From NCBI GenBank assembly GCA_038087875.1, contig CM075992.1, positions 6,822,001-6,886,000 of the forward strand: 64,000 nt of DNA, read 5' to 3'. Source of the DNA: Malacoraja senta (lineage: Eukaryota). Position numbers and translations under genes: made by a program. How positions within the stretch are numbered: position 1 is the first letter of the stretch; every line of letters begins with the position of its first letter. The notes under the pieces were generated by a model that was not told where the DNA came from, searched no databases, and saw nothing but the letters and a program-made list of their open reading frames with translations. This document shows positions 13,611 to 62,800 of the stretch, in pieces.

Positions 13611-15175
13611 GTGGGACCCGGTACCTGAGCCCGTTATTGCCGTTTCCATTATACAAAGTTGAGTTTGAGACAGTGATACGGGAACTCCAGTATTTGGTGG
13701 TCTTCAACCTCTCCCTGTGGACCTAAGCTTGTAGCTTTGAGTAATGTCATTTAATTCACCAGCTCTGATTAACAGGTGGCTTAAATGTAATTGGAGATGC
13801 GCTGTAATGAGTAAGATCAGACTTCGTAAGGACCAAACTGCTTGTAAATGAAGGACAAAGATCGGATGGTGACACAAGGAATTGCAGATACTGGGCTCTT
13901 GAGTGAAACACAAAGTGCTGGAGGAACTCAACGGGTCGGGGAGCATATGCGGCAGGAGGACTGAGTTACTCCAGCACTTTGTGAGCTGAAGGGTCCCGAC
14001 CCGAATCGTCGTCTATCCATTCTTTCCATGGATGCTGTCTGACCCGCTGAGTTACTCCAGCACTTTGTGTTTCACACAATGGTCAGATAATTTGTTACAT
14101 TGACGTTGATTGTGACAGAAATTTTGTAACCCCTCTGCTCTTCGTTGAGCTAGTCCCCTGTCCCTGTTTTTGGCCAATAACCCTCAAAACCCTACTTATC
14201 TATATATCTGTCCATATATCTTTAAAAGTCATAATTGTATCCACTTCTGTGGCTTCCAATTGCAGTTCATTCGAGAATACAGACTACCCTCCAAGTGAAA
14301 AAAATGCCTACTTAAATCTCTCCCCTCTCATCTTAAACCCATGCCCTTTAGTTTTAGAATCGTCTACCTCAAAAGACTGTGAGCAATCAGTTTATCCATG
14401 CCCCTCATGATCTTGTACACCTTAATAAGATCATCCTACGCTCCAAAGAAAAATGTCACCGCATATCCAAACTCCTCCAAACTCAAGCCCGCGAGTCTCT
14501 TAATATTCCGGTGAAACTCTTTTGCACCTTTTCCAACAACGACATCAGTCTGAAGAAGGGTTTCAACCAGAAACGTCACCTTTTCATCATCAGTCTGAAG
14601 AAGGGTTTCGACCCGAAACGTTGCCCATTTCCTTCGCTCCATAGATGCTGCCTCATCCGCTGAGTTTCTCCAGCATTTTTGTCTACCTTCGATTTTCCAG
14701 CATCTGCAGTTCCTTCTTAAACGTCACCTATTCATGTTCTCCAGGGGTGCTGCCTGACCCGCTGAGTTACTCCATCACTTTGTCTTTTTTTATAAATCAG
14801 CATCTGCAGTTCTTTGTTTCTGCATCTGAATGACATCCTCCCTCTAGCTAGGTGACTGGGACTCCACCTACAGGCCTCCAAGTGTGGTTTCACCAACAAC
14901 CTGTACAGTTGCATCATGACACCTCACCCTTTGTTCTCATTACCCTCATAACTATTCATTACTCAAGAGAAAGGGCAAGTATGCCAAACGCCGCCTTCAC
15001 AATGCTGTGTAGCTGACTCTCTACTTCTAGGGAAATCTGCTCCTAGGTTTCCCTGTTGCGCTCCCACTAATAAAAAACACTGCAGGGCTTCACGAGGGTC
15101 GGAGATGCCAAAGTTACCAGGATTATCTTGGATGGAATTTATTTATTTTGTTTGTTTGTTTCTCTGCCTTTTCAG

Positions 15176-22843: not shown

Positions 22844-23926
22844 GTTTGTGCCCTTAATTTTAGCTACATTGTGAAGTTTTATCTGTAGTCTCATTTCTAA
22901 TTATCACAAGCATTTAGCATTTAGCATGATGTTATCGGTTGTATGTAAGAGAGAGAGAGAGCATTCTCCTGGGCACTTCCTGCTAAAACCATTCCCGGAA
23001 ATATCTCTGCCACAATCTTCCTGAGAGTCTGATTTGCAATTTTGTTTTCTCCATTTGTCTGTCTGCATCAAATGAAGTGAAGATACCAACTTTCTGTTGT
23101 TATGGCAACGATTGCACCAGACTATAGCGAGCAGAAGCCTAAATCTAAGTCAAAGTGTGGAATTGAATAGGAGCAGGAATTCAGAGGACAGGTTTCTAAC
23201 CCAGGCAGTTGAGGTTCGCAATGTTTAAACAATCTAGCTAGGTTTCTTCGGATAGGTATTTCTCCTGATGAAAAGAGGGTGTGCAAATAGGTGTATGTCT
23301 CAGTCTGAAGAAGGGTTTCAGCCCGAAATGTTGCCTATTTCCTTCGCTCCATAGATGCTGCTGCACCCGCTGAGTTTCTCCAGCACTTTTGTCTTCCTTT
23401 GTGCAAATAGGTGTATTTGTTCTTAGAGTTTTTCAGTCTTTCCTTGGTTTTCTTGGGAATTAATCACACACAAAATCATATCTCTGAATTTTGCAAGTGA
23501 CACAGTGGCGCAATGGGTCGCTGCCTTACAGCGCCAGAGACCCGGGTTCAATCCCGACCACAGGTGCTGTCTGGACGGAGTTTGCACGTCCTCCCTGTGA
23601 CCGCCTCAGTTTTCTCCGGGTGCTCTAGTTTCCTCCCACACTTCAAAGATGAGCAGGTTGTTTGTCAGCTAATTGGCTTCTATAAATTGTCCCTAGTGTG
23701 TAGGTTAGAACGAGTGTACAGGGTGATTGCTCGTCGGCGCGGATTCGGAGGGCCAAAGGGCCTGATTCCACACTGTATATATACAGTAAACTAAACTAAA
23801 CTTACATATTTTGAGGTCCTTACATTTTTTCTCCTCTCCCTCTATTTTCTCTCATTTTAGTACAGTACAGCACAGCACAGGAACAGGTCTTTCGACCCAT
23901 ACTTTCTGTGCCGAACTAAACTAATC

Positions 23927-24372
23927 TCTGTAGGAAAGAACTGCAGATGCTGGTTTAAATCGAAGATAGACACAAAATGCTGGAGTAACTCAGCAGGACA
24001 GGTAGCATCTCTGGAGAGAAGGAACGGGTGACATTTCGGGTCGAGACCCTTCTTCAGACTGATGTCAGGGGAGTGGGCGGAACAGAGATAAAATGTAAGA
24101 CTGGTAGGAGAACTGGGAAGGGGGGTGATGGAAAGAGAGGGAAAGCAAGGGCTACTTGAAGTTAGAAAAGTCAATGTTCATACCACTGGGTTGTAAGCTG
24201 CCCAAGCGAAATATGAGGTGGTGTTCCTCCAATTTGCACTGGGCCTCACTCTGACAATGGAGGAGGCCCAGGACAGAAAGGTCAGTGTGGGAATGGGAGG
24301 GGGAGTTAAAGTGTTGAGAAACCGGGAGATCAGGTTGGTTTAGGCGGACTTAGCGGAGGTGTTCAGCGAAAC
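23927..24372 (-). mobile_element. Penelope-like element 3' fragment (GIY-YIG C-terminus remnant plus terminal repeat)
   Basis: Reverse-complement homologue of 28830-29262; includes the hammerhead-like core near 24029-24057. Confidence 0.8.
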
Positions 24373-28829: not shown

Positions 28830-29262
28830 TACACCTTGGGAGAGCAAGAGCAGGCTCGCCGATCATTTTGCCCAACACCTCTGCTCAGTTCACACTAACC
28901 AACTTGATCTCCCGGTGGCTCAGCACTTCCCCTCCCATTCCGAATCTGACCTTTCTGTCCTGGACCTCCTCCAATGCCACAGTGAGGCCCAGCGCAAATT
29001 GGAGGAACAGCACCTCATATTTCGCTTGGGTAGTTTACACCACAGCGTTACGAACATTGACTTCTCTAATTTCAGATAGTCCTTGCTTTCTCCCTCCTTC
29101 CCCTCCCCTTCCCAGCTCTCCCGCAAGCCTACTGTCTCCGCCTCTTCCTTTCTTCCCCCCCGACATCAGTCTAATGAAGGCTCTCGACCCGAAATGTCAC
29201 CAATTCCTTCTCTCCATAAATGCTGCCTCTCCCGCTGAGTTCCTCCAGCATTTTTGTCTACC
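28830..29262 (+). mobile_element. Penelope-like element 3' fragment (GIY-YIG endonuclease remnant plus terminal repeat)
   Basis: ESKSRLADHFAQH...PVAQHF...RKLEEQHLIFRLGSL...NIDFSNFR* resembles the PLE endonuclease C-terminus. It is followed directly by the abundant short repeat. Confidence 0.8.
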
Positions 29263-29639
29263 TTGTGGATAGATGTCAGTTTGTGGAGGGAGAGTGAGGT
29301 GGGCTGGGGAACTGGCTGGGTGGGGTGGTGTGGACTGTGGATCTGTTGTTTAGTAATATTGATCCCTATCGCCTGTGACATGAGCCAGTGTTTTAACGAA
29401 TGTTCACCAACAAAAGGAACCGCACTTATACACCAGCTTTGGCTTTGATGTGGTACTAATTCAGATTCAGATTAGTTTATTGTCATATACACCAGATGCA
29501 ATAATAATTCCTTGAGACTCATAGAGAAGCCCGAATACATGTTAATGATACATAAAGTAATGATACAATAATCTGAAGTAGTGCAAAACATACTGGTGCA
29601 ATAATGTCATAAATGAATAAGGTACAGTCTGAAGTCCGA

Positions 29640-30262
29640 GAACACTGGTGCAATTATCAAGAAAGCACATCAGCGCCTCTACTTCCTGAGAAGATTACGG
29701 AGAGTCGGTTTGTCAAGGAGGACTCTCTCTAACTTCTACAGGTGCACAGTAGAGAGCATGCTGACCGGTTGCATCGTGGCTTTGTTCGGCAACTTGAGCG
29801 CCCTGGAGAGGAAAATACTACAAAAAGTAGTAAACACTGCCCAGTCCATCATCGGCTCTGACCTCCCTTCCATCGAGGGGATCTATCGCAGTAGCTGCCT
29901 CAAAAAGGCTGGCAGTATCATCAAGGACCCACACCATCCTGGCCACACACACATTTCCCTGCTACCTTCAGGTAGAAGGTGCCTGAAGACTGCAACGACC
30001 AGGTTCAGGAATAACTACTTCCCCACAGCCATCAGGCTATTAAACTTGGCTCGGACAAAACTCTGAACATTAATAGCCCATTATCTGTTATTTGCACTTT
30101 ATCAGTTTATTTATTCATGTGTGTATATATTTATATAATGGTATATGGACACACTGATGTGTTCTGTAGTCATGCCTACTATGTTCTGTTGTGCTGAAGC
30201 AAAGCAAGAATTTCATTGTCCTATCAGGGACACATGACAATAAACTCACTTGAACACTTGAA
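29640..30262 (+). mobile_element. Rex1/Babar-like LINE 3' fragment
   Basis: KKAHQRLYFLRRL...NFYRCTVESMLTGCI...IKDPHHPGH...FPTAIRLLN, followed by a (CTTGAA)n tail. Confidence 0.85.
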
Positions 30263-33200: not shown

Positions 33201-33613
33201 GCCACTTATACTGGTGATGAATTAGTTTCACACAGCGGACTGTGAATCTTTTCAATTCTCTGCCTCCACAGACTGTGGATGCTCCGTTGCAGACTATTTT
33301 CGAAGACTGAGATCACTTGAGTTTTAGATATTAAGGGACTCAACAGATCAGATAGAGAAGTGGTCTCAACGTCATGATCATCCATAGATATAAAAGGTGC
33401 ACTGGCTTCTGCTTCTGTCTCTTACTTGTGAAAAATATCCTTCAAAGAAAAGTAGGAAACACAATCTACCGATCTCTATCCGAGTGGGATTTTGCAACTA
33501 CAATTTGTATTTGTATTGTGCAATTAATTAAAAAATAATTGAACTATGTACTCTATGAAACTGGCAGTTTGACCAGTTAATGCTTCTCTTTCCTTTAAGT
33601 CAGAAACTCAAGA

Positions 33614-33900
33614 GCAGCACGGTGGCGCAGCGGAGGAGTTGCTGCCTTACAGCGCCAGACACCCGGGTTCAATCCTGACTACTGGTGCTGTCTGTACTTA
33701 GTTTGTACGTTCTCCTTGTGATCGCGTGGGTTTTCTCCAGGTTCTCCAGTTTCCTCCCACACTCCAAAAAAGTACAGTTTTCTAGGTAAATTGACTTGGG
33801 TAAAATTGTAATTTGTCCCTAGGATAGTGCTACTGTACGGGGTGATCGCTGGGCGGCACGGGGACCGTAGTGCCTGTTTCCACGCTGTATGTCTAAAGTC
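33614..33900 (+). mobile_element. tRNA-derived V-SINE (HE1-like)
   Basis: A box TGGCGCAGCGG, B box GGTTCAATCC, V-domain and tail. One of at least 15 copies in the window (e.g. near 6016, 8755, 12875, 18990, 23500, 26530, 47170, 49145, 56930, 58250, 61285, 62641). Confidence 0.85.
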
Positions 33901-34909
33901 GAATGTTATAAGATGAAGTCCTTTGCCAGAATTGATACACTGATCTGCAAGCTGTACACAGTGCTGTCAGAGCTGCCACTTGAAATGAAACATTAAACTA
34001 AACATCTGTTTGACTGTTCCAGTGGTTGAAGTCACACCATCACTCTGGCCAAACTGCAAATCCAGCTGTTTGTGGGATCTTACTGAGGCCAAAATAGCTA
34101 CGCTCCTGCCCACAAAAGAAACGTTCTATTTCAAAGTCCTTTCATTTAATTTGACCGGCTTTGAGATGTGATGAAGTGTTATTTCAGTGCTCTCTATTCT
34201 TTATAATCAGAGGCATTAGGCTGTGCTTGCACCGTCTCTTTTGTGGGTGAGATTGGCAAGTTCTCAGATAATCATCGTGACTTCTTCAAGCTGCTGCAGT
34301 TTCAACTTAAACCAAAAATGTCAGTCCAGCAATTAGCAAGGAGATTTCAGTATTTACTGTCCCCTTTCTTTTACCTTTCACCCTACTGCAGTATGTGGCA
34401 TATACACAGTGCGGGTTACTTAGAACATATGGAGCAGAGCAATGCAAGAATTGGTTTAATCTGGAATATTGGTCTAACAAAAGTAAGGGTGAATTAGTTC
34501 AAAACTAATTTAGAAATGCTGCAATATCTGCAGCAATGAGCACATTGATTTCAAAATTACCTTTAAACATTAAGAGCCTCTCCTCGTTCTATTTGAATAT
34601 CAGGCTGTTACTTCAGCAGATTAATTCTGCTCAATGTGCATCCCACGCATGATGACCAGTGAATGATATTAACTGTACAGCACAGGCTTTGGCCCTTCGG
34701 CCCATCAGGACAATGTTTGATGCCCACTGCTAAACGTCCTACAGCAGCCCTCCTCCTACCAACCACACTTCATAAACCTCTCTAAGTGAATCACGATGGA
34801 AAATTAATATAATAAACAAATTATTTCGAGCAAAGAGGAAATAGCAACACATTTTAACCAAATTTGGATTAAGGCCAGGCTGCAACATTTTTAAAGTTTC
34901 CTTTGTCTT

Positions 34910-35435
34910 TCATGTGATTGATGTTTTATGGGATTTTGTGTTTTTTTTGGTGTTTATGGGATTTAGGTATTTTTTGGTGTTTATGGGATTTAAGCTTTTC
35001 TTGGTGCTCAATGTGATTGAAGCTTTTTTTTAGTGGTATATGGGATGTGTTTTGGTGTGTTTTGTAGGATTTGAGCGTGATTTTTGGTGATATATGGGAT
35101 TTTTTTTTGTGTTTTTTAGTGATATAAGGGATTTGTTTTTTTGTGTTTTATGTCAATTGAAGCATTTTTGGTGATATATAGCATTTCTTGTTTTGAGGCA
35201 TTTTATGGGATTCATGCCTTTTGTTTGGTGATATATGGGATTTAAGCATTTTTTAGTGATATAAGGGATTTAAGTTTTTTTGTGTTTTATGTCAATTGAA
35301 GCATTTTTGGTGATATATAGCATTTCAGTTTTGGGGGTATTTTATGGGATTCATGCGTTTTGTTTGGAGATATGTGGGATTTAAGCGTTTTTTGGTGGAT
35401 GTTTTATCGGATTTGAGCGTGTTTGATGGTGATTT
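34910..35435. repeat. T/G-rich minisatellite (~26-28 bp unit) with a 137-bp higher-order duplication
   Basis: Recurring TTTTGGTG(A/T)TATATGGGATTTAAGC units. Blocks starting GATATAAGGG at 35121 and 35258 are near-identical. Confidence 0.85.
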
Positions 35436-35459
35436 CTTCTGAAGGAGATGATTGTGAGG

Positions 35460-35654
35460 AGCGCGGTGCCCGCAGCAGCAACAGCAGCCTGAGGCGGGGA
35501 CGCGCCCCGTGTGCGCGCGGTGGGCGGGACATGGACATTTAAATGTGGGCAGAGGGGGCGGGGCTAACGGATCACCCCACCGGCCGCGGGCGCCCGCCTG
35601 TCAAATACCCGGATGGGCGGGAGCCGGCTCCCATTCACAGTGCCGGCCGCCGAC
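35460..35654 (+). promoter_or_regulatory. LDLR: LDLR proximal promoter and 5' UTR (CpG-rich, several GC boxes)
   Basis: GGGCGG-type boxes at about 35491, 35522, 35554 and 35615 surround the SRE; Kozak-like GCCGCCGACATG. Confidence 0.85.
35571..35580 (+). promoter_or_regulatory. Sterol regulatory element SRE-1 (ATCACCCCAC)
   Basis: Exact match to the canonical LDLR SRE-1 decamer, ending 75 nt upstream of the ATG and flanked by Sp1-type boxes. Confidence 0.92.
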
Positions 35655-35715
35655 ATGACTAGACCACTGCTGTTGCCGCTCGCTGCTCTACTGCTGCTCA
35701 CAGCCGTGGCCGACG
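35655..35715 (+). CDS. LDLR: LDLR exon 1, signal peptide MTRPLLLPLAALLLLTAVAD
   Basis: Hydrophobic leader; donor G|gtgagt; phase 1 matches exon 2. Confidence 0.92.
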
Positions 35716-36382
35716 GTGAGTCAATATATATATATATACGTGTGTACACGCCGGGGAGAGGGATGCGAGGGGTCCCGGTGGAGGGCGGTCTGAGGGGATT
35801 TGTATGAGAGAGAGAGAGAGAGGGTTGTGTGAGGAGAGTTGAGATTTGAACGAAGAGAACTGAAAGGGGTTTAGCTGAGGGGAGTTTGAATGAAGGGAAT
35901 TTGTCTGAGGGGAGTTTGAATGAAGGAGGTTTGTGTGAGAGGGGGGAGCGCCTGCCTCAGGTGAGGTGAGGTGAAGCGAGGGGCGCGTCGAGCCCAGCGG
36001 CTGAGAGTGAGAGAGAGCTCGATGGACAGGCGTGAAGTAGGAAGGAACTGCGGATGCTGGTTTACACCGAAGATAAACACTAAAAGCTGGAGTAACTCAG
36101 CGGGACAGGCAGCGTCTCTTGGAGGGAAGGAATGGGCGACGTTTCGGGTCGAGACCCTTCTTCAGACCGGGTGGGTGATGAGGCTGAGGGTGAGAGAGCG
36201 TGTGGAAGTGGTTGCGGAGCCTGGGATGAAGGAGCCTCCTCCGCGACCCTTCATCCCGTCTGTCCCCTTCATCCCCTCATCCTACCGCAGCTGTCCACCG
36301 CTCCGGGGGTCTCGACCATCACTGGGACGCCGTGTGTGTGTGTGTGAGGGGAGGGGGGGGGCAGGTTCAAAAAGTCGCCTGA

Positions 36383-36486
36383 TGATTGGTCTCTCGATCT
36401 CCTGTTTTGCCCGGGACCAATCAGCGCGCCACTCTCGGGGGCCGGTCCCGCGGCCGCGCCTATGGGCGGTGGGGAGGGGCGGGGGT
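36383..36486. promoter_or_regulatory. Intron-1 module: inverted pair of CCAAT boxes plus GC boxes
   Basis: TGATTGGTC (36383-36391) and GACCAATCA (36415-36423), followed by GGGCGG/GGGGCGGGG in CpG-rich DNA. Confidence 0.6.
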
Positions 36487-36731
36487 CCGCGAGGAGGAGC
36501 CTGGGAGTTGTAGGCAGCCGGCGGTCTGAAGAAGGGCACAAAAAGCTGGGGTAACTCAGTGGGGGCAGGCAACATCTCTGGAGAGAAGGAGTGGGTGACG
36601 TTTCAGACTGGGTCTCGACCCGAAACGTCTCGAGCGATGCTGCCTGTCCCGCTGAGTTACTCCAGCTTTCAGTGTCTATCTTCTGTTTAATCTAGTTCCT
36701 TCCTACACGCTCCACCCGACCCTCCAGGCAT

Positions 36732-36986
36732 GTGTAGGAAGGAACTGCAGATGCTGGTTTAAACCGAAGATTGACTCAAAAAGCAGGAGGAACTCAGCAG
36801 GTGAGGCAGCGTCTCTGGAGAGAAGGAATGGGCGACCTTTTGGGTCGAGACCCTTCTTCAGACCAGTTGGTGGGGGGAGTCGTTACCCATTCCATCTCTC
36901 CAGAGATGCTGCCTGTCCCACTGAGTTACTCCAGCATGTTGTGTCTATCTTCGGTCTAAACCAGCATCTGCAGTTCCTTCCTACAC
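36732..36986. repeat. Palindromic Penelope-derived element (inverted pair of terminal repeats)
   Basis: Begins GTGTAGGAAGGAACTGCAGATGCTGGTTTA and ends with its reverse complement; arms ~100 bp. Similar palindromes lie near 19790, 24735, 25940, 32586, 36525 and 37041. Confidence 0.85.
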
Positions 36987-39900
36987 GTTGCACCCGAGCC
37001 TTCAGGCGTGTTAAATTTAACCCATGTTTTTAATTCCTTATGTGTAGGAAGGAACTGCTTTACACCAAAGTTAGACACAAAATGCTGGAGTAACTCAGCG
37101 GGACTTCTCTCCAGAGGTGCTGCCTGTCCTGCTGAGTTACTGCAGCATTTTGTGTCTATCTTTTAGATTCGTTAGTTGGTGTTCAGTGGGCAGGATCCAA
37201 TTGGTGGAGTCAGTTTCTGGTTTCAGACGGCTGGTGACGAGTTATGTGTAGCAAATCCTCTTGGGGGGGGGGGGGGGTGGCAGGGCAGGGGATCGGGGCA
37301 GATGTTTACTCATGGGGCAATCCAGAGCCAGACCATTACCATTATAAATAAGGCTCGCCCATCTAATATTGATGAGATGTAAAAGGGTCACTATTTGCTC
37401 TTCAAAAGCAAAGTCTTGCACCTATTAAAGCAAAAGTAAGAGTGTTCTTGATATGCAGAGACTCAAAAGAGTGCGCTGTTGCTGTTTTAAAGCCTATCAA
37501 ATGTGAATTTACTAAATCTAAAAATGATTTGGTGCTGCAGCCTGCCCCTCCTGATTTCATGTCCTTCCAGTTTGAAGGTGCTACTTTTGCAGGGATCTTT
37601 GGGGTGAGATAATACGGTATTTTGCTGTCTGATTAGTAGGTTTGCATGATGCAATCATAACTTGTATGCCTCTCCAGTTTGAAGGTGTTAGTATTGCAGG
37701 GATATTTGGGGTGATATGTTAAGGACTGCCCCTGTAATTTCATTAGATTGAAAGTGGGAAGTTTGCTGCAGTCTTAATCCTGAGCCAGTTCATTAAAACA
37801 AGTTGTTAGACGATTTCCACTCCTTGTTTGCTACTTTTCCACAGTACAGTATTATGATACTGGGAATGTACTGCTGTGGCAAACTTCCATAAACTGATGT
37901 TCAAGAAGTATATAGTCTTATAATAGATACTCCCCGGTTCTTGTGCTGTGATGAATTATTTCTGAAATTATTGTCAGTACACCTAATTTTTGGTAAGGGA
38001 AACGCAGACTGTTCAAACACTGAAATATGGGCTTGCATTGGGGAAGTAGGATGATTGAATACTTCTTAAATAGTCAGTTGAGCAGGGTGCCGGAGAGATC
38101 TTGTTTTCAATTTCCTTTGGAGGGTGAAGAGTGAATATCTCTCATTTACTTTGACTTGTTTGTTCCTGAGGTGTGAACCATTACGATAACTTATTAGAAT
38201 GATTTGCTGTTGGAAATGAAAGGAAGTGATTCACCTACAACTTCTGTAGTGAACAAAGGAGTGGAACATTCCATCAGGTTAAAAATGAATGATTGTTTCA
38301 AGGTTCACTCCCTGGAGATAAGAGATCAAGAAATGAGTATCAAGGACATCTAGCTGTCGGGTTAGTACCTGTGCAGGAAAATAACACACTGACATAGACA
38401 TTCAGTATTGTACACACACACACACACCACCATTTGATGAGATCAAGAGTTGAATGACCTATTCCAGTTTACAATTTTATATGTGATAAGGAGGTAATTC
38501 ACTCCACCCAGCATATTGCTACTTTTTAGATCAATTCCATTCCTCAATTTTTCCCTGCAGCTAATTCTCTAACATATGACCACGTGTGAACATGTACACT
38601 GACCCTCCCATGAACAACCTAGTCTATGGGTAATTTAATGTCTAATTAACCTAGTCCAGCATATTTTGGGGATGTGGAAGAGACTGGAGCACCTGGGGAA
38701 TTAGTGTCCACAAGGTTTCACGGTCCGTTTATTGTCACATGTACCAATTAATTACATGTACAAAGTACAATACATATGTGCTGCTGCAAGTAAGGATTTC
38801 ATTGTCCTGTTTTGGGACAAAATGCTCTTAATTCATGAAACCTGCACTGTCACTGGAAAAACACGCAAATCCTACACAGACAGCAGCTGAGGTCAGAAAT
38901 GAATGTATTTGCTGGAGCTGAAACGGTAGGACTAGCTGCACTGTCACTGTTTTGAGATTTGTTTCCTCTTGGCCCCTTTATCTCCATGGATTTCTGGGTT
39001 GTGTTTGATTTGTTGGCTAGTGCACCGCCTGCTTACACGTATAACAATTGAAGGGTTCAAATTGACCAAGCCACTCCTTGTTGTGAACATATGATAACAG
39101 CTTGTGCAAAGTGGCCTCTGATTGGCTGGCTGGCATGGTATGATCAAGCCGTCTTGTTGACTAAGTTACTGTTGATGGTCTCAGCTGCCTTTAGGTATTG
39201 ATGAGATGGCAACAAAAAAGCTTGTTATCCCGAGCACACAAACTGAGTTGCGCGTCTCATGAGAAATGATTCTTTTTAAAGTCGTACTGCAATAATTCTC
39301 TGCGAGCAGGCTTTTAAGTCCTGGTTGCAGTAATGATGCAGTTGCAGCTCTGTTTCTGCCTCTGCTGCAGTTTTGGGTTGTGTCTGTGATACACATCAGC
39401 CTGCTAGGCACTGGTTGAATCGAGGTGTCATCTGTGAAGCAGTGTGATAGCTTTCTAGGATGCTTTTCAGACAGTTGTTGCTTGCACTTAATCGAGCTTA
39501 GCATGCCGTTTGGGCTTGCAAATATAACCTGGGATTCACTTGTGGCAAAATGCCTAGTACTTTCTTGGTAGAAATGAGCAGTTATTATATTCAGTAAGTG
39601 TCTCTGTGTTAAGTGCCCTTTTATGTTGGGGAGTGGTTACAGGGTTGAGTTCTGCGCTGTGGTCTTTGGGAATCATTCTATGTTCCAAGAGAGAGCAGCT
39701 AAGTGTTACTCTTTCTGTCGGGCAACAGCAGATTATTGCTGAAGGCTGCAGAATTAATTTTGAATGAGGTTAAATGTTCAGTCCTGGGCATTGGAGGGGG
39801 TTAGTGTTAAATATTATGTTTAAATATAGATGGAGTGTATTGAATGTCTCATTAGATCATGTAGTTAAAGTTGCCTCATGGCAGCTCTCGACCTCGGTTG

Positions 39901-42608
39901 ATACTTTTTAATGCCCACCCTTTTGGAGTCCCAAATATTGATGGGCATTTCACCACCTCTTACCGCAGGACATGGAATTGATGGCTTCATACTAGTTGTT
40001 AGGAAAACTGATGTTTTTAAAAGTGGGGGTATAATAAATTGGAGACATTATTAGAAACTAATAACCAATGCCTCTTATTGAATGTTACATTTCAGATGCA
40101 TTGGTGAGAGGCATACATATTTCAGCTAAAGGTGCAACTTCAGCAGGTTAATTCCATTGAATGTAAATCTACCCAGTCTGGCAATCTCCCATTTAATGCC
40201 CTGATGACGCCCAAGCTGTAGCTGAAATGCGCTCCCCGGCTAGAACCCTCTTGACTTTTAAGAATGCAAGAAGGGATAGGACAAAATAACTAGAAAGACA
40301 TTCCATTAACTGTAGAATGAACAGACGGATCCAAGACTATGTGCAAGAGGTTTATAAAAAGTGTAAATTTGTCTGAGTTTCTGATCTTTGATTAATTGCA
40401 GTGCAACTTCTGGAAACTTCATTTATTAAGGTTTGACTGTTTGGTTCAGTTAGCTCATGCTTTAAAAAAAAAAAAAAAAAGATCCCATTTCGTTGTTCAT
40501 GTTCAAAATGTTTTTACTGTTTGCTACCTTTTATTTCCCCCTTTGAAACGTTTTCCTTTCGATTTCTAATGGCATATAATCCACCACCTTGCCTACATCT
40601 CATAAATCAGTGGGATCACGGACATATTCTTAATTTACTGGATATCTCTGTTCTATCTCCATTATTTTAAATACTTTGTCAGGTCTCTTTTCAAGCAGAA
40701 CTTTATTACATTTCAATCTTAATTCCTCAGTTGAATGTACACCTATTCTCTATAGTCTAGAAAGATTTCTGAGTAAATCTGGTATCCTCAGTCAGTGATG
40801 TAACTGGTGTCACTGAACTTAATGCAGATCCTCATTGGGTCCTTTAATCCCGACTCCTGGTGTATAGATGCAGGGGAAGATATTGATTAGTGTGCTACTG
40901 ACTGCAGCCAAGAGGATGGTGTTCCTGTAGGTGGCAGAGTGATCAGTATTAATACTCTTGTGTAGAAGCTATTGTAGAAGGTGAAATCTTGTTGCGTTTA
41001 AACTTTTATACTTCCGACTTCCAAGTATGAATGTGAGGTTAAGAGCCAGGCAATGGGAGCCATCTTTCCGTCTGATTCTATTTATTTATGGAGGAGTTGT
41101 AGCTGGAGTAACATGGTGCTTTGAATATCATGTTAACGTGCAGTCAGTTATTTCCTAGAATAGTGTGGGTGGGGCCATGAAATGTGTAGCAAGCAACAAA
41201 CCAATCCTGTCTCGTGAGGCCATCGGCCCATTTTCAGCAGCAAATGAGAGAAGTGAACCAAAGATGATTGTGTTCCTCTGCGTGAGTCATCGCCAGAGTA
41301 AAGTTTTACTAGTATTGGGGAAATCACCACAATTGGAATTTCTGCTTGAATTGGAATTTCTGCTTGAAATTGTATCGTCAAAGGGAAAGACTTTTCAAGC
41401 AAAGCTCTGACTCTCTTACCACCCCGCACAAAAAGGGGACTTTTAAACAAATCTCGGCAATCTTCCTGCAGATGTAACTTGTTGGGGTTTTTTGACAAAG
41501 TTACTGTTAACTCAATTGGTTATGTAGTGCAGTAGATTGATTATTGCCTGGTGTCATTTAATCTTTTTTTTTTTTTAATGAACAGGCAGATAATCAATCT
41601 ACTGAATAGGCTGTGTGCTGTGGTATTTTAGAGGAGTGCCTTTGATAGTTTTTTTCTGCACAGCTTGGTGAGAAGGCTGAGCTAGCAGTAATCCTGCCAG
41701 TTCCTTCAGTGATTGGCAAATCATTGTGTTTTACAAAGTTGTGGCAATGGACAGGGTGGTGGTGAGGTTGTGCTGCTTTTCCATTGAGTTAGCACAAAAA
41801 TGGGTGCTGGAGTAAGCCTTTTCTTCTCTATTGAAATCGTTCGTGTTATTTTTTTCTTGGTACCACTTTTCTTCATTTCCCCCATATCCCTTGTTTCCCT
41901 TAATAGCCAAAAGATTATTGAATATGATTTTGAATACTCCTGGTCACTGTGCCTCTACAGTCCACTTGGGTAGAGAATGCCAAATGGTTGTTCCTATTGA
42001 AGAATAAATGTTTTTCTTTCTTCATGCCTGATTAGCCCACTGCTCATTTTGTCTGTCAACTGGTTTGATCCTCAGGCAGGGGAAACATTGTATCTGCATC
42101 CATCTCTTTAACTGTGTTGTATATTTTCCTGTGACCATCCCTTATTCTAAGGTATGCAAAAATGCTGGAGAAACTCAGCCGGTGCAGCAGCATCCCTTAT
42201 TCTAATCTCAGGGTACAAACCTGGTCTCCTCATATCAGATCCATCACACTTGGAATAATCTGGTTATCAGCATCCAAACAAAATAGTCTTGAGTGCGATG
42301 TGGAACACATAATTGTCAATTGCTGCTAAAAGAATCAAAGGAATAATTTCTGTAGTTAGAAACCATTATTTAAGAGATGTGGTAATCAATCCGAGCCCAA
42401 TAGTTAGTGAGTGGCTACTCTCTATACAACTTAATGCAGGAAGTGGGAGAGGATTCTGAGGAAGAATCCTTGAGTTTGCCGAAAGAATCCTTGAGTTTCT
42501 AACTAAAATTGCCAGGGTGTCTTCCCTTTTGATATTTGGGTTTCCCTCTGATTTTAATCTTTGGCTTTTATAGTGATGAGGAAAGTGACCAGTATTTTGC
42601 TTTTTCAG

Positions 42609-42731
42609 CTATTGGACTGTGTGATCGGGACCACTTCGCGTGTGGTGATGGGAAATGTATTCTTTCACGCTGGCTCTGTGACGGACAGTCCGAATGTGAA
42701 GATGATTCGGATGAATCGCTGGAGACGTGCA
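42609..42731 (+). CDS. LDLR: LDLR exon 2 (LA repeat 1)
   Basis: 123 nt, AG/GT bounded; [37 protein letters not shown]. Confidence 0.97.
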
Positions 42732-43123
42732 GTAAGTGGAACTTTTGTTCTTTCAGTGGCAGTTGAACTGCACAAAATGCATCATCCCTGCTAAATTAGC
42801 CATTCCAGGGCATTAATTGCTTGCGCTGTAGTTTGTTTTTTGTCTGGATTTCCACTCCCACCTCCTGTAAAACTGAGTTACAGTGATGGTGTGAGGATAA
42901 TTAAGTGAGGGAGGAAAGTATTTGGAAAGGATATCTACTTGCTGAGCTTCTGCCATCCAAATGTACATTCTGCAGTCTGCTTATTTGGGAATCCATTGGG
43001 CTTGCCTAAATGGGAAAAGCTCTGCTTGATTGTGGGATTCATTTTAAATATGAAAAAAAATGAACATAATCCTATAGAGTTTAGAGTTTGTGTTGCACAT
43101 TTGAAATTTTCTCAATGTTTCAG

Positions 43124-43246
43124 AGAATAAGACCTGTGGCCCCCATGAGTTCAGCTGTGGTGGACGCGTTAACAAGTGCATCCCAGCGTCCTGGCGCTGT
43201 GACTCTGAGACTGACTGTGAGAACAAGTCTGACGAGGAGAATTGCC
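43124..43246 (+). CDS. LDLR: LDLR exon 3 (LA repeat 2)
   Basis: 123 nt; [38 protein letters not shown]. Confidence 0.97.
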
Positions 43247-43343
43247 GTAAGTGGCTCTGAATTTATATTTCAGCTCACGCAGTCGTTTTTAACCACTCAA
43301 CATCAAATCCTGTCTTACAATTCCTTGCTGTCCTGTTCCGCAG

Positions 43344-43724
43344 CTGCCCATATCTGCAAAGACAATGAGTTCCAGTGCCACGATGGAAACTGTGTCTCTC
43401 TGCAGTTTACCTGTGACGAAGAGGATGACTGTGCTGATGGCAGCGACGAACTAAAGTGTCCGCCACGGACCTGTGAACCCGCAATGTTCCAGTGTGACAA
43501 CGGCATGTGCATCCCAAGACTGTGGGCTTGCGATGGTGATCCCGATTGCCCCGATAAATCGGACGAATTCTCGCAGAACTGCGGACATCCAACAACATTT
43601 GAACGTCCCAATCCCTGCACTGCCCTAGAATTCCATTGTGCCACCAGTGGCGAGTGCATCCACGTGAAATGGCGCTGCGACGGCACCACAGACTGCAAGG
43701 ATAAATCTGACGAGGAGAGCTGTG
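43344..43724 (+). CDS. LDLR: LDLR exon 4 (LA repeats 3-5 with linker)
   Basis: 381 nt; three six-Cys DxSDE repeats; follows a 97-nt intron. Confidence 0.97.
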
Positions 43725-44332
43725 GTGAGTGTTTACAGCGCTCGCTCCTATGGCTATGTGTTGACCCGAAGCTAGAGGAGTCTCGGATGCAGGATTTCCT
43801 GTCCCAAGGATGTACTTGTATATCTAATCAAAAGCCAATGTTGTAGCTACGCAGGGGATGCCAGAGGTCTGGCAATCTTGAGTTTCTATGGTATTTGGTA
43901 GTAAGGAAGCAAGCCTCTGATTCATTTCATGACCGGAGTGGTCTCCCTGAAAAAATAATTGATTGATTGAGAGACACAGGCCCTCCATGCCGGCCATCGA
44001 TCAACTGTTCACACTAGCTCCGTTATCCCTTTTTCACATCCACCTGCTACACACACAGCAATTTACAAAGGCTATTTAACCTCCAAAACCTGCACGTCTT
44101 GGGGATGTGGTGGGGGCAGCTGGAGCACCTGGAGGAAATTTATGCCATCATAGGGAGAATGTGCAAACTCCATGCAGACAGCACCCAAGGTCGGGATCCA
44201 ACCCAGGTCTCTTGCGTTTTGAGTCGGCAGCTGTGCCACTGTACCACCTTAATGTTATGAGCATTACCAAACTAACGGAATCAACAGATATAATTTCCAG
44301 TGTGTTCATAAAGGTTTTTATTTCCCTTTAAG

Positions 44333-44455
44333 CTGTGACAACTTGCCGCCCTGATGAATTCCAGTGTGAAGACGGGACATGCATTCATGGAAGCCTTCAG
44401 TGCAATAAACAGTTTGACTGCCATGACCACAGCGATGAAGTTGGGTGTGTAAATG
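44333..44455 (+). CDS. LDLR: LDLR exon 5 (LA repeat 6)
   Basis: 123 nt; [36 protein letters not shown]. Confidence 0.97.
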
Positions 44456-45133
44456 GTATGTTGATTTCCATAAATTACCATGTTTTTGAACTAAAATTTC
44501 CTTCAGTCGCTGTAGATCTGTTTAGTTCATATGAGAGATTTTTTTCTATCAAATCTTATGTTAATGGGACAAGGTGCACTTTTCTTCAGCCAAAGCTGGT
44601 TGTACTTTGAGACTTAATGAACAATTTGCTATACTGAATGTTATTGGTCTTGCCCAGATTTTAGCCTGGTTAGGTATCTTGCTGTAATCCAGGCATCTCT
44701 AATTATGCAGTTGGAGCAAAGAAACATCCCATTCACCAATTAATTGGGATACATTGTAAAAATTGATATTTTCTTTCCTTTACTCATATTTTTTTTCTTG
44801 GATGCTGTCCAAGTTTGACTTGGTGGTAGCTCTCTTGTTGCTGAATGTTGGGAGATTATTGAACCATTTTATTAGTGGTGTTTGTTATCAGACTTCAAGA
44901 ATGGAATACTGTTCCATTCCCTGCCTTGGTGTATGTGACCCTACCATTTGGTGTAAAATGCAAACCTAGCTGCTGTTAAGATAATTAAAGTGCTGTCCTG
45001 CTTCCATACAAAAATACCCCCCATCTTTGCCCCTTCACTAGTTTATTGCATTGGGACAAACAGTGGTTGTTGCAGCCATTTGAGACAATGCAATGAATTT
45101 AGTCCTTCAACTTTCCCTTTTTTTTACCTGCAG

Positions 45134-45256
45134 TGACCCGGTGTGAAGGTCCCCATAAGTTCAAATGTAGGAGTGGGGAGTGTATCCTCCTGGACCAAGT
45201 GTGTGACAAGCGGCGTGATTGCCGGGACTGGTCCGATGAGCCCGTGAAGGAGTGTG
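45134..45256 (+). CDS. LDLR: LDLR exon 6 (LA repeat 7)
   Basis: 123 nt; [38 protein letters not shown]. Confidence 0.97.
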
Positions 45257-45437
45257 GTACGTCAGACGTTCAATTTTAACGCTCTATTTGTCTCTTACCT
45301 TTCTAGAAGTGGGCTGGTGGTGATGGCAAATAGGAGGATTGAGGGGGTCTGTCATTTAACTGAGATGTAACTGAGCAGGACAAGGATGAATAGGTTAAAC
45401 TGGTGTTAATGCCTTTGCTTCCATCATTCTGATTTAG

Positions 45438-45557
45438 GTGATAATGAATGCCTGCAAGAAAATGGAGGCTGTTCACACATATGTAAAGATCTGAAGGTCG
45501 GTTATGAGTGTCTCTGTCGACCAGGGTTCCGGCTGGTTGATAATACCAAATGTGAAG
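45438..45557 (+). CDS. LDLR: LDLR exon 7 (EGF-A)
   Basis: 120 nt; [38 protein letters not shown]. Confidence 0.97.
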
Positions 45558-45676
45558 GTTTGTATGCATTGCCATCTTCCCAGTACCCAACATTCCTCAC
45601 ATGATTCCTTTATTGCAAAATGTTATTCAAAGGATACAACTGATGTCGACACCTTGGATTTTTTTTTTCTATCCAG

Positions 45677-45802
45677 ATATTGATGAGTGTGAGAACCCAG
45701 ATACATGCAGTCAGATTTGCATGAACCTGAATGGTGGATTCAAGTGTGAGTGTAAGGAAGGCTATCACATGGATCCAGTGACTCAGCAGTGCAAAGCAAT
45801 TG
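45677..45802 (+). CDS. LDLR: LDLR exon 8 (EGF-B)
   Basis: 126 nt; [30 protein letters not shown]. Confidence 0.97.
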
Positions 45803-46382
45803 GTAAGGACCGTGAAGACTGTGCATGAGGTTTTATTTGAAATTTTAGCGACTCTAGTCGTCTACCTTCTCAATTGCTCTTGTCTTTGTTTTGAGTGCTT
45901 TTAAGTTAAATCGAACATTAATTTCCAAGTGCACAGCAGTTTGCGTGGGGTAGTTAACTAGTGATGACTACAGAATATTGTCATATTTGTGAAGAGGTGC
46001 CCTATGCTGACTGCTTTTTTTCTCCCCCTAAGCTTTATTGGATTTCATATTGTTACTAGAACATGAGGTTAGAAAAGCACAGCACCTGAACGGGCCCTTC
46101 GGCCTGCAGTGTCTATGGCCTACATAATGCCAAGATAAGCTAATCTTGTGTGCCTGCACATGATCCACATCCCAGCATTCTCTGCATATCCAAAAGCCTC
46201 TTAAACACCACCATTGTGTCTGCCTCCACCACCAGTGCATACCAGGCATATATGTTGTTTTTTTTAAATGCCACGCACTTAAACCTTGCCCCTTTGCACC
46301 TTAAAGCAATGCCCTCTAGTCTTGGACATTTCTACCCTCAAAGGATCTCATTCTCGTCTGAATAATAAGATAACTTATTATC

Positions 46383-46692
46383 TTCTTGCATTTGAGGCAG
46401 TAGAGGTTATGTAACGACCTCCAGGCGCTGTAGCCAGTTCAATGGTGGTCTTGGCCTTGGTGAGGCCTTCCGCATTCAGCTTCAGCAGGGTGATGCCATC
46501 CGGTTTGACATCCTTAGGTGCCTGCCCTAAAAAGGGCCATGCTCTGGGTTGGTGCCAAGCTGAGGCTGCATTAGGGCTGCAAGCTGTTGGTGTTTGTTGG
46601 TTGTTATTTCTGCTGCTGTCTGTTTGTTGTCGTTCACCTGACTGAGGTCAGTTGACAGGGCTCACCATGGGAAGGTCGACAACATGAGCCCC
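46383..46692 (-). mobile_element. 310-bp non-autonomous retro-insertion in LDLR intron 8, with 11-bp TSD and a 5' HDV-like ribozyme fold
   Basis: TSD AACTTATTATC at 46372-46382 and 46693-46703. The - strand ends in GCAAGAA(GA). Confidence 0.85.
46626..46692 (-). ncRNA. HDV/CPEB3-like ribozyme fold (probably inactivated copy)
   Basis: P1 GGGGCTC/GAGCCCT with G1-U wobble; P2 GTTGTCG/CGACAAC; P3 ACC/GGT; L3 TTCCCAT; P4 CTGAC/GTCAG; J4/2 GTGAA. Confidence 0.8.
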
Positions 46693-46961
46693 AACTTATT
46701 ATCATAACTTTAAACTTCTACCAGGTCTCCACTTGACCACTGATGCCTAGTATATGGAGTTGGTTGGGTCATTCCTTCATCAAAGATCAGCACTTTCAGT
46801 GTGTGTACAATGTATAACCTTCAATAAGGTCAAGACTTGTGATGCATTGGATAGGCTAGTGACGTGGTCTTGTTGACCTGACCTGAGTTTTGTTCATTTC
46901 AATCGATGAATTTGTTTGAATTGGCTGTATCTGATGTATCCCACTCTGAATGTAATTCCAG

Positions 46962-47133
46962 GGACTGTAGCATATTTGTTCTTCACCAGCCGGCACGCTG
47001 TCAGAAAACTGACTCTTGATCGGAGTGAGTACACCCAGCTGGTCCCCAGTCTGAAGCACGTTGTGGCACTCGACATGGAGGTGGCCACAAACAAGATCTA
47101 TTGGGCTGACGTGGATCAGAAGAAAATCTTCAG
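46962..47133 (+). CDS. LDLR: LDLR exon 9 (beta-propeller start; [13 protein letters not shown])
   Basis: 172 nt, AG/GT bounded, phase 1-2. Confidence 0.96.
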
Positions 47134-49005: not shown

Positions 49006-49124
49006 GTTTCTGTATTGGAGTGATTGGGGCTCCCCTGCCAAGATTGAGAAAGGAGGTTTGAATGGAGTGGATCGTACGTCACTAGTCAATGAAGGGATTC
49101 AATGGCCAAATGGAATCACCCTGG
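49006..49124 (+). CDS. LDLR: LDLR exon 11 ([20 protein letters not shown]...WPNGITL)
   Basis: 119 nt, AG/GT bounded. Confidence 0.96.
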
Positions 49125-59831: not shown

Positions 59832-62800
59832 TATCTAGGTGTAAGGGGGTGGTGGGTTGTGGGAGTGGGGAAGGAAGCAGGGTGGCAAAAAGACCAAAGA
59901 AGGGTCAGACTTGAAACATCATCTGTCCATTCCCTCCACAGCTGCTGCCTGACCCGCTGAGTTACTCCAGCACTTTGTTTTTTTCCCCCCTCAAGATTCC
60001 GCAGTCGGCAGTCTCTAGTGTCCATTATAATTACGGATTTTAATGCAGCTATACTTTACAAGTGTTGTGCAACCAGAACTCAAACATTACTGCAATGCAG
60101 CCTGACCAACAATTGGCACAACTGTAACATGATGCTGTAGGAAGGATGGGATTAACCAAGAGAGGGTACAGAAACGATTCAGAGTGTTGTTGCCAGGACT
60201 AGAGGGTTTGAGTTATAAGGAGACATTGTGTAGATGGACATTGGAAACAAAATAGTGGAGAAAATAAAAACACCTCTGGAGTGAACCAAAAAGTATCCAT
60301 GTAAATTCTAGTTCTATTTATAACACATCACATCACAGATAAATGACTGTCAACCAGAAACTTTCAACCTCTCAACTTCTCTCTCCTTCCACTGGCAGGG
60401 CAAAACTTTGCCCCATGTTTGCCATTCTTATTCATGTAGTTCTGGGGTCGATCTGGAAAAGGTTCCAAATGTCTCCAAATTTGACTGCTCTGCCATTGGG
60501 TGTCTTGTCCTGGTGGTCACACATCAAACTCTGGGAAAGCCCTCCCTCTATCACTAACTCTGATTAGTGGTAGAGAGGGAAAACATAGAAACATAGAACA
60601 TAGGTGCAGGAGTAGGCCATTCAGCCCTTCGAGCCAGCACCGCCATTCAATATGATCATGGCTGATCATCCAAAATCAGTACCCCGTTCCTGCTTTCTCC
60701 CCGTATTCCTTTAGACCGTTAGCCCCAAGAGCTCTAACTCTCTCTTGAAAAACATCCAGTGAATCGGCCTCCACTGCCTTCTGTGGCAGAGAATTCCACA
60801 GATTCACAACTCCATGGGTGAAGTAAAGGAAAAAGTCTGAAAATTGTGGTTCAACCTTGGAACCTTGAGCCTAAAAGTGCCAGGAAAGTTAAGTTTAGTT
60901 TATTATTGTCACGTGTACTGAGGTACAGTGAAAATATTTTTTTTATTGTGTGCTATACATGTTTACAATCAAGCAGTCTTCAGTGTACAGATACAGATAA
61001 AGGGAATAACATTTAGTGCAAGACAAAGTCCAATAAAATCTGCTTAAAGATAGTCCAAGGGTCGTCAATAAGGTAGATGGTGATAGGATGGTTCAGTTGC
61101 CTGATAAAGGATAGGAAGAAATTGTCCCTGAATCTGGTGATGTGCATTTATGATATTGATCTGCCAGCAGTCATAAAAACACAAAATACATGAAACATGA
61201 ACTTAAAGTGATGAGTGGAAAGGATTGGGGATATCCAAAGTTTGGGGATGGGGGGGGGGGGGGGGTAGTCAGTCCTTCCAATAAGGGCGGCACGGTGGCT
61301 ACAGGTGCTTGTCTGTACAGAGTATGTACGTTCTCCCCGTGACCTGTGTGGGTTTACTCTGAGATTTTCGGTTTTCTCCCACAGTCCAAAGGTGTATTGG
61401 CTTGGTATAAATGTAAAAACAAATCCTAGCATGTTTTTATGTAAGGTAGTGTTAATGTGCGGGGATCGCTGGTCGGTGCCAAAGGGCCTGTTTCTGCGCT
61501 GTATCTCTAAACTAAACTAAACTAAACACTAAGGACACTCCGGGGCAATGTTCTCCTATTTCTCCAGTGCATTCCCATGCCTCCTCCAGTGTACATTATT
61601 GGTCCATTGAGGTTACACCAGTTTACTCTCTGTCTTTCTGCCTCGCGAAATCACCGAACAAAAGTTGCAAACTAGGATTTTCAGTGAATCACAGGGAGAT
61701 TTGCTGAGCAATAAGCAATATATTAAAATAGATAAATTGCCACCCCCATTTAATGTGTAGGTGACTGACAATCTTGTAGGAAATAGAAAATAAAATGTTG
61801 AGTATGTTTACTTGGCAGCTGTTTCGATAAATAACAAATTATAAGTTGGAAAGTGTGAAGCAGAGATTCACCAGGAGTTTATGCGGGCTTGTGGCTTGAG
61901 GAAGAGGGAGTAGTTGGAAAAGCTGGGACTTTTTCCTTGGAGCGTAGGGGGCCGAGGGGTGACCTTATAGAGGTGCACAAGATCATGAGGGACATGGATA
62001 AAGTGGACGCTCACATCATTTTGCTCAGGGTAGAGGATTGTAAAACTAGAGGGCACAGGCTTCAGGTGAGAGGGGAGAGATTTAACATAGAGCACAGGGA
62101 TGGCCCTTCGGCCCACATTGTTTGCACCAATTATGATGCCATTAAGCTTATATTACCTGCCTGTACATGATCCATATCAAAAAAGCTCAGATATAAACCA
62201 TGAATAGATACAATCAGTTCAAACTCAAGTACAATAGGTAGAGCAAAGGGGACGAACGATACAGAGTGCAGAATACTGTATAGTTCTCAGCATTGTAGCG
62301 CATCAGGGAGTGAAAGATTTGTTCCTGAGGTCCCATGTGCTCTGTGGAGTAGAGGAGAATATTTCAGTAGTGAAGGAAGGAACTGCAGATGCTGATTTAA
62401 ATCGAAGATAGACACAAAATGCTGGAGTAACTCAGGCAGCATCTCTGGAGAGAAGGAATGGGTGACGTTTCGGGTGGAGACCCTTCTTCAGATCAGTCTG
62501 AATTGGACAGTACCATGGTTTATGCAAGGACTGTTCAGAATGCCTGATAACAGAGGGGAAGAAGCTGTCCCTGAGCACTTTGTGGCACCTGTATTTTCTG
62601 CCAGGTGGGAGCAGGGAGAAGGAGAAAAAGACTGTGCTGGAGTTTAGTTTAGTGATACAGCGCGGAAACAGGCCCTTCAGCCCACAGTGTCCACACCGCC
62701 CAGAGATCCCCGCGCACCAACCACTACCCTACACACACTAGGGACAATTTCACATTTACACCAAGCCAATTAACCTACAAACCTGTACGTCTTTGAAGTG

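Follow-up and report, generated by a model that had tools for sequence, protein, structure and literature searches.

A minimal hammerhead motif of Penelope-like type in an abundant repeat at the SMARCA4-LDLR locus of the skate Malacoraja senta

Introduction

A short antisense sequence in the first intron of the skate LDLR gene reads as a minimal hammerhead ribozyme, and it raises the question of whether the motif is genuine, how it came to lie there and whether it would cut RNA in its present place. The association of hammerheads with Penelope-like elements (PLEs) was published in 2014 for many animals, including fishes, coelacanth and frog (PMC4209133). The consensus for the minimal hammerhead (min-HHR) in the accessible text of that report comprises CUGANGAH, a helix II that starts with G, GAAAN, a palindrome and NUH, and an extra nucleotide, the G10.1-C11.1 pair and the palindrome are named as conserved traits of the PLE motifs. 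In vitro, cleavage by monomers was not seen and cleavage by dimers was low (PMC4209133). In PAc, the Poseidon element of Anolis carolinensis, the accessible text describes a hammerhead that cut only with the element's protein, cleavage that was dispensable for insertion in vitro, and RNA-seq ends at the site that were not found (Frangieh et al. 2024, PMC11167929). The statement in the first-pass annotation of this DNA that PLE hammerheads cleave as dimers holds in part: some dimer activity is published, but it is only weak (PMC4209133), and the anole element needed protein (PMC11167929).

No chondrichthyan was found in the accessible parts of the table and alignment of the 2014 report (PMC4209133), and a 2026 preprint includes one according to its accessible text (Li et al., 10.64898/2026.07.22.740005). 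Literature searches, with repeat databases outside their scope, returned among the papers listed none on a PLE hammerhead in skates or cartilaginous fish, and the word 'Penelope' is absent from the main text of the little-skate genome paper (PMC9605692). The family described here may already be catalogued in Repbase, in Dfam or in preprint supplements.

A PLE-type hammerhead motif in LDLR intron 1

The window, that is, the whole stretch of 64 kb that was analysed, is the SMARCA4-LDLR locus of the skate. LDLR exon 4 shows 93% identity to Leucoraja erinacea LDLR, and the Leucoraja LDLR maps as 16 segments from 35613 to 53087, residues 35-71 and 581-627 falling below the filter. The upstream gene we take, from its translation, to be SMARCA4. 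The flagged copy of the repeat is antisense and lies 420 nt inside LDLR intron 1. The features of the two genes and of the motif are as follows.

about 13610-15177, + strand: last SMARCA4 intron, placed from the translation
15945: SMARCA4 polyadenylation signals
35613..35717, + strand: coding part of LDLR exon 1 (signal peptide), 97% identical to residues 1-34 of Leucoraja LDLR P0161, with donor GT
36037..36167, - strand: whole repeat copy around the flagged motif (PLE 3' end), antisense, in LDLR intron 1 and in a CpG island
36138..36165, - strand: minimal hammerhead core, with CTGAAGA as C3-A9 at 36165-36159
36158, - strand: extra A directly after A9
36157-36154 and 36149-36146, - strand: arms of stem II (GGGT/ACCC, 4 bp) with a CUCG loop
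36145-36142, - strand: GAAA, followed by the palindromic CG and then by U16.1-C17
between 36138 and 36137, - strand: cut site predicted from the motif layout
36168-36166 with 36137-36135, - strand: arms of stem I (GGT/GCC; U-G wobble, G-C, G-C)

The - strand sequence from C3 (36165) to C17 (36138) is exactly as first read, and the three pairs of stem I (GGT/GCC) were confirmed. Stem II had been drawn with 5 bp and a 2-nt loop. Five pairs closed by two nucleotides are sterically implausible, and 4 bp with a CUCG/UUCG tetraloop fits better. The flagged copy matches the published min-HHR consensus, as laid out in Fig. S3 of PMC4209133, at all positions, and it unites the CUGANGA...GAAA...UH core, the extra nucleotide, G10.1-C11.1, the loopless ACGU palindrome and a 3-bp helix I; it is the best-formed motif in the window. 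The extra A, one of the two grounds on which its activity had been doubted, is to be expected, because the accessible text lists an extra nucleotide among the named conserved traits of PLE hammerheads. As to the other ground, helices I of 2-3 bp occur in the alignment of the same report (PMC4209133). In the CChMVd hammerhead an extra A is described as lowering the rate only moderately (PMC3705267, accessible text). Judged by motif identity, the flagged sequence is a genuine minimal hammerhead of the PLE type.

Copies of the motif in the window

The loose pattern CTGANGA..GAAA occurs 20 times in the window against 4.1 expected, and the 28-mer, with up to 7 mismatches allowed, gives 28 matches against 0 in each of 50 dinucleotide shuffles. 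The first-pass annotation had counted at least 15 intact or degenerate versions, and all 13 coordinates that it listed are among these 28 (62463 should read 62464). An HMM built from 22 window copies recovers 50 pieces that amount to 4,937 bases, or 7.7% of the window, the repeat unit being about 100-135 bp long. All 11 core nucleotides and the palindrome are retained in 4 of the 28 motif copies, and 2 of the 28 have in addition a complete 4-bp stem II and a stem I of 2 bp or more; the 63492 copy, scored without gaps, is rejected because of an extra A. A family-independent descriptor of intact hammerheads accepts three motifs (14595+, 36165- and 62491-) against 0.03 in 100 shuffles and reveals no second hammerhead family in the window. 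Rfam gave no hammerhead match at E up to 10, either in the whole window or in 36090-36210 and 14520-14660. Some miRNA-like Rfam matches over inverted pairs were dismissed, their scores being below gathering.

14541..14816, + strand (sense): tandem of direct repeats within the last SMARCA4 intron, with two motifs of intact core at a distance of 45 nt and a third partial copy
36526..37168, alternating strands: six further repeat pieces in LDLR intron 1, none with an intact core
62371..62492, - strand: third copy accepted by the descriptor (C3 62491, stem I of 1 bp), downstream of the LDLR coding region

In the tandem, the motif with C3 at 14550 has a broken closing pair in stem II and that with C3 at 14595 is intact and carries GUU; no other two motifs in the window share a strand in such a way that a dimer-type ribozyme could arise in cis. 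The 36861 copy has G12>A and a broken palindrome. The extra A is present in 33 of the 34 pieces that cover its position, the G10.1-C11.1 pair is G-C in 15 of 24 aligned copies, and the palindrome is C-G in 13 of the 24, the remainder being largely CpG-type changes. Stem I has 2 bp in the commonest form of the repeat, and its third pair forms in 5 of 21 aligned copies. Four runs were also searched (X10, X1, X2 and X5), namely three other organisms and the best-matching run, whose contigs are of guessed or unknown kind. ACGU is the majority form of the palindrome in these contigs, and their majority letter restores the palindrome at 24033 (67-88%).

The parent element

At two sites the motif had been described as following a GIY-YIG-like remnant. 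Both remnants exist, but the GIY-YIG motifs themselves have been truncated away from both, and the label rests on homologues.

28840..29264, + strand: 5'-truncated PLE copy, with the endonuclease C-terminus at 28840-29076, a stop at 29077-29079 and a pyrimidine-rich 3' UTR
23926..24370, - strand: 5'-truncated PLE copy, with an endonuclease remnant at 24370-24155 (one in-frame stop), then 3' UTR

The remnants end 92 and 95 nt upstream of C3. The first copy has a degenerate hammerhead (C3 29171, G5>A) and a short 3' end without tail, and the second (C3 24057) has C15.2>T and a 3' end with tail. The flagged copy is 88.6% identical to the endonuclease-linked copy over 131 nt and carries the optional tail of about 34 nt, at about 36037-36070. 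No match to Pfam PF01541 was obtained in the two remnants, where one DUF4667 match lies below the cut-off. They are 66-72% identical to the predicted proteins P0002 (Leucoraja) and P0005, and 41-50% identical to proteins that combine a reverse transcriptase (RT), a CX2-5CxxC linker and GIY-YIG at the C-terminus. The RT is present in the relatives P0050, P0068 and P0118, and the linker in all seven relatives examined, its region falling outside the window remnants; such a linker marks Neptune/Nematis PLEs in the accessible text of PMC8557442. The 64-kb window contains no RT remnant, full-length element or 5' terminal repeat, and only 2 of its 50 pieces carry endonuclease sequence. Since the remnants are devoid of GIY-YIG motifs, the Pfam match is absent and the window holds no RT, we infer the clade only through these relatives: the repeat forms the 3' end of a PLE that bears an endonuclease and is probably of Neptune type.

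The same endonuclease C-terminus is spliced into public gene models (P0002, P0004, P0005, P0051 and P0113), and the models that contain it include neuromedin-U receptor 1, RECQL5-like and NYAP-like. These are probably annotation artefacts of an abundant element.

Conservation and predicted folding

Conservation was assessed in 24 aligned copies; similarity in the core was among the grounds for their selection, a choice that inflates the conservation measured there. Differing cells amount to 34/264 (12.9%) in the core and 93/903 (10.3%) in the distal 3' flank, with 10.9% in stem II, 18.1% in loop/N7, 19.4% in the proximal 3' flank and 30.2% in the 5' flank. The comparison of core with flanks that the first-pass annotation had proposed is therefore divided: among the window copies the core is conserved above the proximal 3' and the 5' flanks but not above the distal 3' flank. 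A second letter appears in at least four copies at 2 of 11 core columns (one of them a CpG site), 3 of 6 loop/N7 columns, 7 of 17 proximal 3' columns and 5 of 6 columns of the 5' flank. Individual copies decay without sparing the core, in a neutral-looking way. A core that is not spared in copies and is avoided by shared subfamily variants is what one would expect if the source elements are under constraint and the copies are not. Covariation of the named hammerhead pairs shows no excess over shuffles in these 24 closely related, decayed copies of one family, for which RNAalifold gives a consensus of -0.64 kcal/mol and 0 compensatory pairs.

Thermodynamic folding, which ignores protein and tertiary contacts, predicts for the flagged copy a stem II probability of 0.00 and a core-flank pairing of 0.92, the pyrimidine-rich 3' flank capturing the purine-rich core together with the 5' arm of stem II. 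Over 21 copies the predicted core-flank pairing has a mean of 0.65 against 0.41 for shuffled flanks; it is 0.85-0.97 in 8 of the 21, values matched by at most 5% of flank shuffles, and older copies show no excess. Because the copies share ancestry and pyrimidine flanks pair readily by composition, this pairing is treated as a lead only. None of four stretches is unusually stable (shuffle z-scores -1.14 to +0.27). Predicted energies are -13.5 kcal/mol for the active dimer, -15.6 for a pair of misfolded monomers and -25.3 when the two form an alternative duplex.

This energy ranking, along with a commonest stem I of 2 bp and a stem II of only 4 bp, would suit a motif of hammerhead descent that is a catalytic vestige already in the source element, where it would be kept as a promoter, protein-binding or folding signal. 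The accessible literature offers further points in the same direction, with an anole PLE that inserts in vitro without cleavage and leaves no RNA-seq ends (PMC11167929) and 8 of 9 Xenopus dimers that failed to cleave (10.64898/2026.07.22.740005), but also the opposite, a core kept across phyla (PMC4209133) and an anole motif that does cleave with protein (PMC11167929). Considering moreover that the shared subfamily variants lie mostly outside the core (2 of 11 core columns) and that the majority letter in the four runs (67-88%) restores the palindrome at 24033, we regard a vestigial motif as rather unlikely and favour one that cuts as a dimer in the source element.

Copy ends and abundance

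The ends of the repeat were determined from 53 local alignments to the 24057 copy (self-hit included), with positions counted from C3. At the 3' side, 23 alignments end at +83..+95 and 19 at +119..+131, with none between and 11 elsewhere, and the loose-end peaks in contigs of the four runs lie at +128, +119 and +94/95. The two groups, about 34 nt apart, represent the PLE 'tail', for which a length of 30-40 bp is given in the accessible text of PMC11167929 and PMC8557442. Of the 17 adjacent pairs 12 are oriented head to head, a number that none of 10,000 randomisations reached (null mean 4.3), and since the motifs of such pairs are on opposite strands they could not dimerise in cis. Three of the 17 pairs are direct, one of these with two core-intact motifs. 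The repeat thus has both an optional tail of 30-40 bp and inverted, 5'-truncated neighbours, and these signatures, together with the endonuclease linkage, bear out its original description as a Penelope-derived, very abundant repeat with a minimal type I hammerhead and a palindromic ACGU.

At the 5' side, the starts of 28 of the 53 alignments fall at -15..+5, and the cut site (+26..+30) has none, which argues that uncut RNA was the source of the copies, as it is for the anole element. Four alignments end at +26..+30, near the cut site: two resume beyond another repeat, a third runs on with mismatches and the fourth is the 14550 copy, whose end may, as far as the present data go, stem from cleavage. 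The loose letters at -5 continue as a pyrimidine tract with an agreement of only 0.38-0.48, and the 5' boundary is partly subfamily divergence. The joints listed include head-to-tail ones with units of 98-134 nt, each of them seen in 14-37 contigs of X10 and in 1-3 of X1 and X5, and they restart at -6..0, so that the preferred 5' edge at the motif is probably real; it would correspond to a transcription start or an RT stop. A splice-junction origin of this boundary, considered on account of the CAG just before the core, was dropped because many copies keep that CAG.

Contigs carrying the family at 80% or more (601-nt stretch) number 320,373 of 27.2 million in X10, and by the same threshold 21,188 of 804,835 in X1, 4,749 of 151,581 in X2 and 28,289 of 1,267,428 in X5 (2-3%). 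Contig counts and summed depth are not copy numbers, and depth was used qualitatively; in X10 the depth over the UTR that separates the endonuclease from the hammerhead is 10-80 times lower than on either side. The contig fractions and the density in the window point to a number of pieces per skate genome on the order of 10^5-10^6; the little skate assembly measures 2.13 Gb (PMC9605692).

Could the short copies form a SINE- or retrozyme-like non-autonomous family of their own, starting at the hammerhead and spreading through RNAs of 100-135 nt, possibly as circles from dimer-cleaved tandems? Non-LTR retrozymes, as far as the accessible text of PMC7229834 and of the 2026 preprint (10.64898/2026.07.22.740005) describes them, resemble the skate repeat in being short, non-coding, akin to PLE terminal repeats and equipped with a type I hammerhead, and rare head-to-tail units occur in the skate as well; the preprint proposes that retrozymes derive from such terminal repeats and includes one chondrichthyan. 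Endonuclease sequence in only 2 of 50 pieces, the 28 of 53 starts at the motif's 5' edge and the head-to-tail joints of 98-134 nt among those listed in X10, X1 and X5 agree with this. However, strong 5' truncation and inversion are normal for PLEs and suffice as an explanation, the joints listed number at least tens against 320,373 X10 contigs with the family, and 14541-14816 is the only tandem array in the window. Unlike retrozymes (PMC7229834, accessible text), the skate copies are dispersed or inverted and 100-135 bp long rather than in arrays of 150-450 bp units, and the ribozyme is minimal rather than canonical; the loop-loop motif of canonical retrozyme hammerheads is absent, and no tandem array of 150-450 bp units with a canonical type I hammerhead was found in the window. 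We consider an independent family of this kind improbable, and read the copies as 3' ends left by the PLE itself.

The host locus

The LDLR promoter CpG island, at 35251-36750, has a CpG o/e of 0.7-1.08 against a window mean of 0.46. The flagged copy keeps 5 of 5 consensus CpGs, two of which touch the core, and only one other of the 24 aligned copies does likewise; protection from deamination in the island would be a sufficient reason for its intactness. The 14595 copy also keeps 5 of 5 CpGs, yet it lies outside the island, so island position is not the sole route to intactness. The 50 pieces are distributed as 14 in SMARCA4 introns, 20 intergenic, 10 in LDLR introns and 6 downstream, about even per kb, and the idea of hammerhead motifs spreading through introns was thus overstated. 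Seven of the core-bearing intronic copies are sense and five antisense, and among the 50 pieces, a small number, nothing points to a preference for introns or to the removal of sense copies.

Several other features of the locus deserve mention. Between 36030 and 37170 seven repeat pieces alternate in orientation, and helices of 89, 51 and 36 bp are predicted in the sense LDLR pre-mRNA, which are possible ADAR-type substrates. In the LDLR body beyond this cluster (37200-53090), 16 kb contain just 3 of the 50 pieces, and all three lack an intact core. Oppositely oriented CCAAT boxes, two in number, lie with GC boxes between repeat copies at 36385-36480, in the intronic part of the LDLR CpG island, and could be an enhancer or a second promoter. 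Upstream of LDLR exon 1, at 35571-35580, a decamer that resembles a sterol response element, and which we take to be identical with mammalian SRE-1, sits between GC boxes; a degenerate T/G-rich tandem repeat with a period of about 136 bp (34922-35433) adjoins the island upstream. Between SMARCA4 and LDLR, an uninterrupted Tc1/mariner transposase frame of 343 codons (21227-22258, + strand; PF01498, PF13358, PF25787) looks young. A LINE-like ORF2 3' remnant is found at 29617-30066 (+ strand; PF09004 above cut-off), and a second abundant repeat of about 250-310 bp, with self-coverage up to 18-fold, occurs at 1125-1433, 23500-23803, 33611-33917 and elsewhere; presumably it resembles the tRNA-derived HE1 SINE of sharks and rays.

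A role in the host, in which a copy was co-opted to cut host RNA, is very unlikely for either candidate. The flagged copy is the best-formed one and lies about 220 nt downstream (- strand) of the CCAAT/GC boxes at 36385-36480, and could thus be part of an antisense transcript of the LDLR island; however, it has no intact same-strand partner nearby (the nearest - strand copy, 36861, has G12>A), and its position in the CpG island would explain its intactness. The 14550/14595 sense tandem, which would act in SMARCA4 pre-mRNA, allows a type III-like hammerhead to be drawn whose stem III has 5 bp, but this drawing is predicted at -3.2 against an optimum of -10.4 kcal/mol, with a stem I probability of 0.00, and in longer context both cores are modelled as buried; nor is there an intron strand bias (7 sense, 5 antisense). 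An unrelated repeat that resembles a hammerhead by chance, for which the absent Rfam match at E up to 10 and the absent covariation might speak, is highly unlikely given that all consensus traits coincide where a PLE hammerhead should lie, directly 3' of the stop codon of a PLE endonuclease, and given that the PMC4209133 motifs themselves were, by its accessible text, defined by a custom descriptor and not by canonical models.

Discussion

Taking these results together, we estimate a probability of about 0.8 that the motif is a passively inherited PLE hammerhead, with cutting restricted to dimers in the source element and an inert flagged copy. It would descend from the terminal repeat of an endonuclease-bearing, probably Neptune-type PLE that would have left very many short 3'-end copies in skate genomes. 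A monomer of the source element would be unable to fold, with stem III absent, a stem I of 2-3 bp and the core captured by the 3' flank, and cutting would take place only when two same-strand copies pair through ACGU, probably aided by the element's own protein, its role being to trim tandem transcripts. Uncut RNA would be the template for the genomic copies: reverse transcription would begin at one of two places, about 67 or 100 nt 3' of the cut site, and on reaching the 5' edge of the motif it would often stop or fold back. The flagged copy, single and antisense to LDLR, would be an inert passenger kept intact by an unmethylated CpG island.

The skate motif shares with the PLE pseudo-LTR min-HHRs, as far as they are described in the accessible text of PMC4209133, the core, the extra nucleotide between 9 and 10.1, the G10.1-C11.1 pair, the loopless 15.2-16.2 palindrome and the short helix I, and likewise its position 3' of the endonuclease ORF, with copies mostly solitary and pairs on opposite strands. 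Both its stems are among the shorter ones: stem II has 4 bp, as do some helices II in that alignment (PMC4209133), and stem I has 2-3 bp, in a class whose helix I spans 2-5 bp. The density of 28 recognisable cores in 64 kb is far above the 4,000-9,000 motifs per coelacanth or frog genome of that report, which counts intact motifs only. As in PAc (PMC11167929, accessible text), the hammerhead lies shortly upstream of two putative RT start sites separated by a tail of 30-40 bp, and copies appear to derive from uncut RNA; unlike PAc, an assayed Penelope/Poseidon element, the skate family looks to be of Neptune/Nematis type by its relatives and is known from sequence alone. With the endonuclease-bearing Neptune/Nematis PLEs in the accessible text of Craig et al. 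2021 (PMC8557442) it has in common the C-terminal GIY-YIG and linker Zn-finger, both seen in its relatives, as well as 5' truncation, inverted 5' copies and the tail, and it differs in that the window holds no RT or full element, the assignment being by relatives.

A more far-reaching proposal, which we hold improbable, is that the skate load of ribozyme-derived DNA is among the largest of any genome (order 10^5-10^6), in a SINE-like unit whose start at the 5' edge of the hammerhead would be due to transcription of the element beginning at that point. The 3' flank would then be an off-switch that spares host transcripts until the element's protein binds the RT-start region and frees the core, and rare head-to-tail tandems, perhaps including that of the last SMARCA4 intron, would undergo cleavage only at sites of synthesis of the protein.

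The finding extends the PLE-hammerhead association of 2014 to skates and is ordinary apart from its abundance; it is also a warning that most such hammerhead motifs are dead passengers. Dense inverted pairs could supply long double-stranded RNA in skate pre-mRNAs. Being abundant, with a mappable tail, a sharp 5' boundary and a predicted helix that buries the core, the family is a convenient model for what PLE hammerheads do, and these features allow the kind of protein-assisted cleavage that is reported from the anole to be tested directly.
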